From Psilocybe cubensis (lineage: Eukaryota), in assembly GCA_017499595.2 (NCBI GenBank), contig CM038998.1, forward strand, positions 3,162,001-3,226,000: DNA of 64,000 bases, written 5' to 3'. A program made the translations under genes and the position numbers. Shown piece after piece: positions 5,298-8,739 of this stretch (its first letter is position 1; every line of letters starts with the position of its first letter). A model generated the notes under the pieces. It saw only the letters and a list, made by a program, of their open reading frames with translations. It searched no databases and had not been told where the DNA came from.

Positions 5298-5406
5298 TAG
5301 TAGCGCGTTCAAATTTAAAAAGAGAAAAAATCTTCACGTTACGGCTTGACCACTTTCGTTGTTGTTGTTTCCTTTGATTCTTTGGTATGTCCACGTTTCC
5401 CTTTGT

Positions 5407-5493
5407 TTCAAAGACGAGACCAAACGAATCGCTACTTTGAAGCTGCTACTACGGCTCATGAGCTTTATTCATATACCCAAATTTCTGATTTGA
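5407..5493 (+). ncRNA. Box C/D snoRNA, dual guide: snR50-type (25S Gm867 equivalent) plus snR40-type (25S Um898 equivalent)
   Basis: C box AAGACGA 5411-5417; guide GAATCGCTAC 5426-5435 + D' TTGA, complementary to LSU GUAGCGAUUC; guide TATACCCAAATT + D box CTGA 5485-5488, complementary to LSU AAUUUGGGUAUA. Confidence 0.85.
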
Positions 5494-5601
5494 TCCCCCC
5501 CGCGTGTTCAAAACTTCTGCTAATTCATTTTATCTCAGTCTTCTATAACAATTCGATATGTATCATCCGCTGGCATAACGTGAGTTTCTCTTCCTCTCTT
5601 C

Positions 5602-5688
5602 CACAAATGATCGAATAAAATAGAAGTCAAGCACTGACCCCGTCTAAAGGATGGGGGATGTCGATTATCCATGCTAATACTGATCCCT
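5602..5688 (+). ncRNA. Box C/D snoRNA, dual guide: snR66-type (25S Um2417 equivalent) plus snR53-type (18S Am796 equivalent, possibly also U6 A53 equivalent)
   Basis: C-like ATGATCGA 5607-5614; guide AGTCAAGC + D' CTGA 5634-5637 (LSU GCUUGACU); internal stem CCCCGTC/GATGGGG; C' ATGTCGA; guide TCCATGCTAAT + D box CTGA 5680-5683 (AUUAGCAUGGA). Confidence 0.8.
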
Positions 5689-5892
5689 CTTCTCGATATC
5701 CTTCAAAACTTGTTGCTGACCTTTTCTTTCATTCCAGGCACCTTGCTTTTGTTGATATCGTTTTATTTCTGTGTAATTTTGTGACATTGGTGAAACACAT
5801 CCTTGTTGCCGCCGATACTTCTTGTCTGAGAGATATTCAAAATTTTATTACGATAGTATGAAATTGTAAGATAAAAGGATTTCGAAAGCAAT

Positions 5893-8739
5893 TTACAAAT
5901 CTGAAGGATATGGCCAGAACACATTGAGCAACCATAAAACAACAAAGAAAGCAAGTATTCTAACACCCAGTCGAATCGTCCACGAGGTGTTTGCAGCAAA
6001 CAGTCGTTGAGTAAAACTGTGAGAGGCGGGCTGGGATGGATTCTGTGCAAGACGATCCACCCAGCGTCCCGGCCTGATTGGCGTATCGGGCTCGACAGGC
6101 AACGGATTCCCTGATTCATCCTTGAATGTATCGTCTGCTTGGAGAGGTGACAGCGATATGATGATTTCTTGCTCATCAGCGGCCAGCGGTGTCTCGGGTG
6201 AACTTTGGGTCGGAGTCGTCGCCGGTAACTCTACCTCCCGCACTCGCGTTCCACATATAGTCGCAGTGATCTCCGCTGTAGCAAACGACACTCGATCGCA
6301 GAGGTATAAAAACATCCCCGATGTAATTACGAAGTTGATAGGCCTCCATGCTGTGCCAGGAATGACGAGCAGAATACCCTTGCTATCACCCGCTAACCAG
6401 AGGTGATATTGGATTATGAACGCTTCCAAAGAACAGTTGCCCACAAAGACAAAGGCGCGCGACGAAGCCGATCGGAGTGCGACGCTCGAATTCCGCAAAA
6501 TAACGAACGCCAGAACGGGCAGGGTTGAAACGTACGGATGCCATGAGTTGTAAGCAAATTTTGACTCCTGAAAAAGTTCGAACACGAAAAACCAAATTAA
6601 AACAAGGAATGAGAATCCGATGGATCCTTTCATTGCCCAGGGCCAGCGAGGGTGATCCACGAGGCGGTGTTCGCGAACTTTTGCTATGACCACTGAAGAC
6701 AACATCCCGACATATACAATCCAGATGTCAAGGTTGACCCTGAATGCCCATTCTTGCGACGACCAATGTATTGCGAAGACATCGTGCAGAATATTGAACA
6801 ATCCTTCGAGTAACCAACTCTTATCCATAAACCAGGTCATAAACGCTGCTGAGAACAAAATTTTCCCGACGAGAAGAATAGTGCGATCGTTGAATCGGGC
6901 CCCAGCCGCCATTGTAGCATAAACGACAATGTACCACATCGATACCAGTGGGGTAAAGTAGTACGAAATGTAATCCGTATTCATGGTGTACGCCAAAAGA
7001 ATTGTGAACAGATTCAGACGAATGAGAACCTAATAAGATGGATTCAGCGTTGGAACCTGTGTGTAAAAAGTGTCTTCTTACTTGAGCAATTCGTAAAAAT
7101 CCATAATCTGCCTTCCGCAAGTAAAAGGTAGTGTGACCATAGCCAGTCATGAAAAGATATGAAGCGACCAGCACTCGTACTGGATTATATATTCCTGAGA
7201 TCTGGGATCCTCGGAAATAATGGTAGATTAGGATGACCACTACCATATAAGATGAATTAGCATGAGTCTTTGAACACGTTCAAGCATTTGTGCTCACATT
7301 GCATCCAACCCTTCCATTCTTCTGTCTGGTCACGATTGAGGAAGCCTAGGTCGGTTTCTCCTCGTTGCATGGTGGTTAATCCAAGAGCAAGTGATGTAAG
7401 GCACAATAAACTGAATCCCCAAGGATCAAATTGCTTTTGCTCTTTCTGCCAAAAATTTGTCCTGTCTGCTAGATATATAAGGGCGATTGACGACCCAATG
7501 ATTAAAGGAGGTAATGTTTGCTGCCCCAAGAGTGCGGTTCGAACATCTCCCAGACCTGAAAAAATTAGTAGTAGCTTAATAGTGTAGGCAAAACACTTGC
7601 CTGCTGTGAAAGCCTTGTAGGATAGATATGGCCCCAATGCAAGTACCATGAACAAAAACAACAGCTGAGGAATTGATGGTAGTGGGTAACGATTACAACA
7701 TGTCCTATCCAAAGGAAAGACTTTTGGCAACTTATCGTTGCAGCTGAGGTTGATTAGAATCCTAGCTTGGACTTTGACGACAGTATCTGAGTAGTGTAAA
7801 CCGTCTTCTGTAAGTGAGTCGTCCAACATTTTGTTAAACACGAGTGGGAGCGCAACTTCGCCACCAGGGGCTACGGAGAACATGTGCCCCGAGCTATCTG
7901 TAGGTGGGTTTATGCGATGGAATAGATCTGAGTTCATGGCGTCGATGTCCGAATGATGGATGGACAACGCTCTGTCCATGGAGAGCTTCGATACCGAGAC
8001 TTCTTCCACGGGTAGTATAATGACTTCGTCTGCAGGTTTACTGAAGGTCGACAACGAGTCAAAAATTCGTTCCATGTTACTCTCCCAAGCAGATATTCCT
8101 CCGGATGTGTTTGCATAGCGTAGATACCAAAGGCCAGATCCCAATACTAGCATAGCAGGTCGCATAGAATTGGTAGTCGCCGTACCGGCTAACACTTGTT
8201 GAGTGTAAGTGTTGTTGAGGTAGGGATCCCATATGAAAGTGAGATTAGTAGCATGTTGGGACTGTAGGGTATGATCCGCATGCTTTAGGGTATCATCCGT
8301 CGGAGCTGAAGGTAGAGTCGCATCTAAGGTTCTTGCAGTTTGGAAGAAAAGTTTCCGGGTAACAGAATCTCCGATGAATATGATTTCTCTCGACTGAAAG
8401 CAGGGGGCAACCTCGTCTTCGGAGTAGGGATACAACATGCACCCTAACTCACTCCATAAATCTCCTGCACCGGCAAGTAGATTAATATGAACTTACCGTT
8501 TGGTTGCCAGTTCTGATAGTCAGAATCTAACCAACTTCCGTCGTTCAGCAATGCCTCACAATGCATTGGGTCTGCCCATCCTGAAAGTAAAGTTCAGCGT
8601 CATGACGCGACGATGTCATAACATATCACCCACCAAAGAAGAGAAGATGCGTAATTCCAGAGAAACATGCCAGGAGGATGAAGAAAATGCCTAGGAAGTG
8701 TGGCCATGCTGGATTTAATGTAGATTTGAACGACGACAT
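5893..8739 (-). CDS. CAS1: Cas1-family O-acetyltransferase (SGNH-like domain plus 10-TM acyltransferase domain)
   Basis: Multi-exon; FIGDSVTR and DGLHY catalytic motifs, [37 protein letters not shown]; many TM segments. Confidence 0.9.

Follow-up and report, generated by a model that had tools for sequence, protein, structure and literature searches.

The idea that one box C/D snoRNA may guide the methylation of both ribosomal RNA and the spliceosomal U6 snRNA in fungi goes back to 2009, when CD11 of Neurospora crassa was described as a 'multi-function' snoRNA: its D' element targets 18S-Am793 (13/0) and U6-Am47 (11/0), and its D element targets 26S-Am356 (Liu et al., 2009; PMC2780460). As homologues of CD11, the same work lists snR53 of S. 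pombe and S. cerevisiae and snoR53Y of plants, and, for human, mgU6-47 is given as its counterpart. A guide shared between the two targets can, under the +5 rule, reach only the adenosine of the AGC triad; we therefore take the human counterpart to be mgU6-53, not mgU6-47.

The proposal was later extended to the snR53/CD_11 family, where a U6 interaction is predicted in all 18S-guiding members except those of the Saccharomycetaceae, with an ICI of 0.89 for U6 vs 0.94 for 18S and mean energies of -13.78 vs -17.34 kcal/mol (Canzler et al., 2018; PMC5824354). Modification of both targets is described there as 'not unlikely', and experimental data as lacking for most fungi. The U6 coordinate is given as U6-62, or 'S. 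cerevisiae U6-45'. In the main text of that study, neither snR66 nor Agaricomycetes occurs, although its supplementary tables may list the family. Likewise, a literature search for a basidiomycete snoRNA study, or for the guide arrangement described below, returned none among the matches listed.

Here we describe a genuine, conserved and intron-encoded double-guide box C/D snoRNA at positions 5602–5688 of a 64-kb window, the whole stretch of DNA that we analyzed. We read it, with a probability of about 0.8, as an Agaricales-type intronic snoRNA that would methylate the equivalents of A796 in 18S rRNA and of U2417 in LSU rRNA. Both are known fungal methylation sites with described guides, as exemplified by N. 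crassa CD11 (18S-Am793) and CD2 (26S-Um2379) (Liu et al., 2009; PMC2780460). Several features count against this reading: the C box departs from RUGAUGA, a terminal stem is missing, the D' duplex is bulged, 19 of 39 aligned relatives deviate from CUGA in the D' box, and no Rfam model matches at gathering level. In the following, we describe the element, its host gene and its relatives, and discuss which RNAs its two guides may act on.

Anatomy of the snoRNA and its host gene

The elements that a sequence-only reading had reported between 5602 and 5688 were all found where it had placed them (Table 1). Besides the terminal CUGA, the element has internal D' and C' boxes, and its spacers, 19 nt from C to D' and 15 nt from C' to D, are both typical. 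The C box retains UGAU and GA with one base between them. A terminal stem is absent from the predicted fold of the window copy, whose flanks CCACAA and UCCCUC cannot pair; intronic snoRNAs often lack such a stem. The 10-mer complementary to the core of the D guide occurs once in the 64-kb window, where 0.15 occurrences are expected, and at least once in 15 of 100 shuffled sequences. By comparison, the composite pattern of C' box, guide and D box also occurs once in the window, and in none of 100 shuffles.

Table 1. Features of the snoRNA and its host gene, in window coordinates
Feature	Positions	Strand	Description and basis
Host-gene transcribed span	5355..5815	+	303-nt contigs: 5355–5579 joined to 5738–5815
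Companion snoRNA-like element	5408..5493	+	snR40-type D guide (TATACCCAAATTT + CTGA); terminal stem TCAAA/TTTGA
Host intron, GT..AG	5580..5737	+	5579 joined to 5738 in contigs of runs X10 and X11
Box C/D snoRNA	5602..5688	+	~80–87 nt; boxes and guides read from sequence; layout common to 51 homologous loci
C box	5607..5614	+	AUGAUCGA (A-UGAUCGA), variant of RUGAUGA; read from sequence
D' guide	5621..5632	+	TAGAAGTCAAGC (RNA form UAGAAGUCAAGC), followed by A5633 at D'+1
D' box	5634..5637	+	CUGA; read from sequence
Hairpin between D' and C'	5638..5656	+	8 bp, loop AAA; fold and covariation
C' box	5658..5664	+	AUGUCGA; read from sequence
D guide	5665..5679	+	TTATCCATGCTAATA (RNA form UUAUCCAUGCUAAUA); read from sequence
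D box	5680..5683	+	CUGA; read from sequence

The snoRNA lies in an intron whose removal is seen directly in contigs of two sequencing runs, X10 and X11, which belong to one study and which we judge to be probable RNA, their nature having been guessed; none of the runs listed with this sequence is recorded as RNA. These contigs are poly(A)-like and have the intron spliced out, and no contig of either run extends across 5604–5735. A DNA run from another strain (X9) is, by contrast, continuous across the whole intron. This strain differs from the window at two positions, T>G at 5586 and T>C at 5727, both of which fall within the host intron and outside the snoRNA. A further run, X12, yielded only an identical piece of 153 nt and is not informative as a relative. 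Within the intron, CTGAC at 5716–5720 is probably the branch site, 17 nt ahead of the 3' splice site that the contigs confirm.

The host gene looks non-coding, since the plus strand of the region contains no open reading frame of at least 100 aa. Upstream of the intron, it carries the second snoRNA-like element listed in Table 1. This companion has an odd C box, AAGACGA, and matches Rfam snR40 in part, at 5472–5490 (21.1 bits, E 0.071); full-length but weak snR40 matches were obtained in the loci L074 and L061. An intron predicted around the companion (5385–5538, GTATGT..CAG) is retained in the X10 and X11 contigs. In the reading that we prefer, the host is a non-coding gene for two snoRNAs, and the snoRNA at 5602–5688 would be freed from its intron after splicing, accumulate as a stable RNA and assemble into a fibrillarin snoRNP.

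Two observations concern other genes in the window. On the minus strand, two long open frames at 5893–8492 encode a Cas1p-type 10-TM acyltransferase domain (PF07779, E 3.6e-72 and 6.1e-22); they probably represent one intron-containing gene that is convergent with the snoRNA host gene. Elsewhere in the window, an importin-alpha exon shows 93–95% identity to named Agaricales proteins, which identifies the organism as a mushroom-type basidiomycete.

Conservation and extent of the element

Relatives were collected by scanning metagenome contigs with the pattern UGNNGA, 2–6 nt, UCCAUGCUAAU, N, CUGA. The 98 matching loci include 51 with the full layout of the window copy, that is, C box, D' guide, D' box, hairpin, C' box, D guide and D box in this order; the other 47 are snoRNAs of other eukaryotes that have the same 18S guide in different layouts, plus chance matches of bacterial or viral origin. 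Some other eukaryotic snoRNAs of unrelated appearance (L005, L076, L037, L038 and L090) also carry this 18S guide ahead of their terminal D box, combined with different D' guides. The position of this guide, before D or before D', is therefore not fixed across eukaryotes.

For a closer comparison, 39 distinct sequences, the window copy included, were aligned (alignment A1). The scan pattern fixed positions 2–12 of the D guide, the D box and the UGNNGA of the C' box, and the family filter required 11 of the 12 nucleotides of the D' guide. The invariance of D guide positions 2–12 and of the D' guide is thus not evidence in itself, even though the D' guide is identical in all 39 sequences. Near-variants of the D' guide were also sought among the other 47 loci, and none were found, bar two chance-like matches.

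The hairpin between D' and C' is supported by covariation. Six of its eight pairs change on both sides in a compensatory manner, and 91.5% of the cells in the alignment are paired vs 82.9% in shuffled alignments, a value that none of 500 shuffles reach; all slid controls are lower as well. The genomic setting recurs, too. In 51 of 52 loci, a 5' splice-site motif precedes the D' guide by 36–62 nt, and in 51 of 52, a YAG follows 31–68 nt past the D box. Of the 45 family loci with enough upstream sequence, 35 have an snR40-type guide on the same strand in the preceding 500 nt. The snoRNA is under selection as a unit.

Several boxes vary within the family. In the C box, the columns read U (22 of 39), G (37), A (37), U (35), a variable base (C 24, U 5, G 5, A 5), G (34) and A (39). 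The extra base that had been reported for the C box of the window copy is real, and it thus occupies a tolerated variable position; two relatives, L044 and L060, have the canonical GUGAUGA. The D' box is CUGA in 20 sequences, C[U/C]AA in 15 and something else in 4, and the position D'+1 is A in 22 and C in 17. The commonest forms of the C' box are UGACGA and UGAUGA.

In one sub-clade, the C box is without its U (L003, L004, L006, L007, L009, L013, L017, L029, L046, L049, L072, L075, L078, L087 and L096). Its C boxes read GGAUCGA, AGAUCGA, CGAUCGA or GGACGAA and its D' boxes CUAA or CCAA, with the D' guide unchanged. These sequences have gained G-rich and C-rich flanks, GGGAGG and CC(G/C)CC, with which a terminal stem is possible, and the k-turn register may have shifted to UCGA.

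At gathering scores, no Rfam model matches anywhere in the 64-kb window, nor on 11 of the relatives. Below that level, the vertebrate-type model snoU6-53 (RF00377) reaches 19.0 bits, where gathering demands 36, with guide and D box identical to its consensus over 15 nt (CCAUGCUAAUACUGA), and the plant-type model snoR53Y (RF01279) reaches 16.4 bits, against 43, with a nearly identical guide. Two relatives also show weak matches to snoU6-53, whereas the snR53 and snR66 models give no match in the window at E values up to 10. The agreement of guide and D box with the two consensus sequences supports the assignment of the D guide's target independently.

The two Rfam alignments take CTGA at 5716–5719 as the D box, and the guide published for snR53 and CD11 precedes the D' box in yeast and N. 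crassa (Liu et al., 2009; PMC2780460; Canzler et al., 2018; PMC5824354). Both observations would suit an element delimited differently, with the real snoRNA at 5653–5724, the shared guide upstream of its D' box and its D box at 5716. In a related version of this view, the non-canonical C box would mark 5602–5688 as a dead copy. We consider either highly improbable. The upstream half of the element is conserved in the 51 relatives, whereas the sequence immediately downstream of 5683 diverges, and the CTGAC that would have to provide the later D box sits where a branch site would, ahead of the 3' splice site. On these grounds, the extent 5653–5724 was ruled out, and the boundaries proposed in the sequence-only reading, 5602–5688, are right, the ends being approximate. 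As for a dead copy, the same C-box variants recur across a diverse and otherwise conserved family, and neither of the two differences in the second strain (5586 and 5727) affects the element.

RNAs matched by the two guides

Short motifs of 18S, U6 and LSU rRNA, rather than sequences from this fungus itself, served as targets here. With the 18S motif, the D guide forms a duplex of 12 bp at -16.8 kcal/mol (RNAduplex), and by the +5 rule it picks the A of AGC. With the U6 motif, it forms 10 contiguous Watson–Crick pairs at -14.4 kcal/mol, since one 10-mer is common to the two RNAs, and the same A of AGC within this 10-mer is picked. The fit to both RNAs had been noted before, with 10 bp for U6, as found here, and 11 bp for 18S, to which the A–U pair at D+1 adds the twelfth. 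In 1000 shuffled guides each, none matched the real duplex for the 18S, the U6 or the LSU motif. We take the 18S site to be the equivalent of yeast A796, i.e. a site of the snR53 type. This assignment follows Liu et al. (2009) and Canzler et al. (2018), and the energies of the two duplexes are close to the means reported in the latter study. The D guide would thus place a 2'-O-methyl group on the 18S adenosine that corresponds to yeast A796, which is the function of snR53.

The D' guide pairs with its LSU motif over 8 bp and, past a single bulged A in the guide, over 3 more, at -14.9 kcal/mol (RNAduplex), and the +5 rule puts its target base at the second U of GCUUGAC in LSU rRNA. This uridine presumably corresponds to yeast U2417, the snR66 site. 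A match to this site with a single bulged A had been anticipated; the base selected is correct, but the bulge interrupts the duplex. The LSU motif was also sought in viral contigs, where it yielded 31 loci, 3 of them with real LSU fragments; in these, the motif falls at about position 2419 of the eukaryotic LSU model of Rfam, which agrees with the region of yeast U2417. The three fragments (L121:1-271, L127:1695-2061 and L130:1-369) belong to contigs filed as viral in IMG/VR whose ends match LSU_rRNA_eukarya with 59–116 bits; such contigs are likely chimeric assemblies or host carry-over. In the same viral contigs, two U6 motifs gave no match, the 18S motif gave 6, none of them rRNA by context, and a longer 18S motif gave none.

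The extra A is present in the LSU guide of every family member, and no bulge-free member occurs among the 98 loci. It either represents a conserved, tolerated bulge or indicates a true target other than this LSU site. In another reading, the D' element would act in accessory or chaperone-like pairing with LSU rRNA, or on another, perfectly complementary RNA, so that methylation would proceed via the D guide only. For this, one can cite the mere 8 bp formed with the LSU motif before the bulge and the D' box, which 19 of 39 relatives have in degenerate form (CUAA, CCAA, CAUA etc.) next to an unaltered guide. Degenerate D' boxes are, however, common in working fungal guides. Also fitting this view, N. 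crassa has a separate snoRNA, CD2, that matches the site 13/0 (Liu et al., 2009; PMC2780460). On the other hand, the +5 position falls exactly on the uridine that is methylated in yeast and in N. crassa, and no perfectly complementary target is found in the 551 kb covered by the 98 metagenome loci, in which the sole matches, 51 in all, are the antisense strands of the snoRNA genes themselves. We therefore regard a D' element without methylation function as fairly improbable; in the reading that we prefer, it would guide 2'-O-methylation of the uridine that corresponds in LSU rRNA to yeast U2417, as snR66 does.

A further question is whether the D guide also acts on U6. It might methylate the AGC adenosine of U6 during a nucleolar passage of this RNA, as vertebrate SNORD8/9 (mgU6-53) do with a guide that is nearly the same, which would make it a tri-functional guide. 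The ten contiguous pairs with the U6 motif and the placement of +5 are compatible with such a role, as is the identity of guide and D box to the snoU6-53 consensus. Several N. crassa guides are listed with only 10/0 pairs (Liu et al., 2009; PMC2780460), and the fungal U6 interaction scored nearly as high as that with 18S (Canzler et al., 2018; PMC5824354). Human U6 does contain Am53, and reviews attribute it to guidance by SNORD8/9.

Against this stand the positions that flank the shared core. Position 12 of the D guide is a U, where the vertebrate U6 guide has a G. Two freely varying positions adjoin the core in the alignment: position 13 of the D guide (A in 28, U in 10, C in 1) and D+1 (A in 35, G in 2, U in 1, C in 1). 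Both pair with 18S and not with U6; at D+1, 37 of 39 sequences have an A or G, which pairs with the U of 18S, and 2 of 39 have a C or U, which would pair with the G of U6. These two free positions favor 18S over U6. Moreover, we found no fungal experiment in the literature, and Canzler et al. (2018; PMC5824354) term the interaction a prediction. In passages on S. pombe U6, Porat et al. (2023) name the sites A41, C55–57 and A64, with A41 as the sole one outside the internal stem-loop, but not A47, although S. pombe has an snR53; as an argument, this is weak.

Weighing both sides, a tri-functional guide is possible but doubtful, and U6 methylation by the snoRNA of the window is at best a tentative proposal. 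The same holds, with yet more reserve, for the general statement that one intronic snoRNA of mushroom-forming basidiomycetes methylates LSU rRNA, 18S rRNA and, with the same antisense element as the latter, the AGC-triad adenosine of U6, which we consider unlikely. If it were true, no dedicated guide of the mgU6-53 type would be needed, and a common guide would hold the 10-mer that occurs in both 18S and U6; it would also fit a descent of vertebrate mgU6-53 from an snR53-type rRNA guide by the change of a single flanking base. We favor the double rRNA guide, for which action on U6 is a possible but secondary property, as already predicted for snR53-type guides.

The sequence-only reading had suggested that one RNA could modify LSU rRNA, SSU rRNA and the spliceosome. 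Of this, the double rRNA guide is real and the U6 fit extends over 10 bp, but as a discovery the suggestion does not stand, as it had been made in 2009 and 2018. In other words, the snoRNA itself is ordinary and real, and its overlap with U6 was correctly observed but already published as a prediction. The question raised in 2009, whether an rRNA guide modifies the catalytic centre of the fungal spliceosome, is left in its present state by this locus, which adds one lineage that fits the prediction on paper.

Comparison with known guides

The snoRNA provides a clean and conserved basidiomycete example of a double guide that no Rfam model reaches at gathering score. Its relation to the described systems is best seen from its two antisense elements, each of which has counterparts elsewhere.

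With N. crassa CD11 and the snR53 family, it has in common that it is intron-encoded and that one element is complementary both to the equivalent of A796 in 18S and to U6, the second being directed at LSU rRNA (Liu et al., 2009; PMC2780460). The order of the two is reversed, though: CD11 has its shared guide before D' and its LSU guide before D, whereas the window copy has the shared guide before the terminal D box and the second, snR66-like guide before D'. The LSU targets differ as well, being 26S-A356/359 in Pezizomycotina and the snR66-type site here. Plant snoR53Y (RF01279) has the same core of the 18S guide, but carries it upstream of D', unlike the window copy.

By its D' guide, the snoRNA resembles yeast snR66 and N. 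crassa CD2 (Um2417 and Um2379, respectively), which select the same LSU uridine by the +5 rule from a D' box (for CD2, Liu et al., 2009; PMC2780460). In contrast to the 8 bp, bulged A and 3 bp found here, CD2 matches its target with 13/0, and it is a separate intergenic gene, whereas the D' guide of the window is fused with an 18S guide in one RNA.

Two vertebrate systems involve U6. The first, mgU6-53 (SNORD8/9, RF00377), shares the 15 nt of guide and box with the window copy and selects the A of AGC in U6. Its G at position 12 extends pairing with U6 to 11 bp, whereas the U of the window favors 18S, and the overall layout is different. The second is human mgU6-77 (SNORD10), which is named in a review. 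It is alike in being an established case of one box C/D snoRNA that serves both U6 and rRNA, and differs in that it uses two guide elements, one per target. The basidiomycete snoRNA would unite an snR66-type and an snR53-type function in one RNA, functions that yeast and Neurospora distribute over separate genes.
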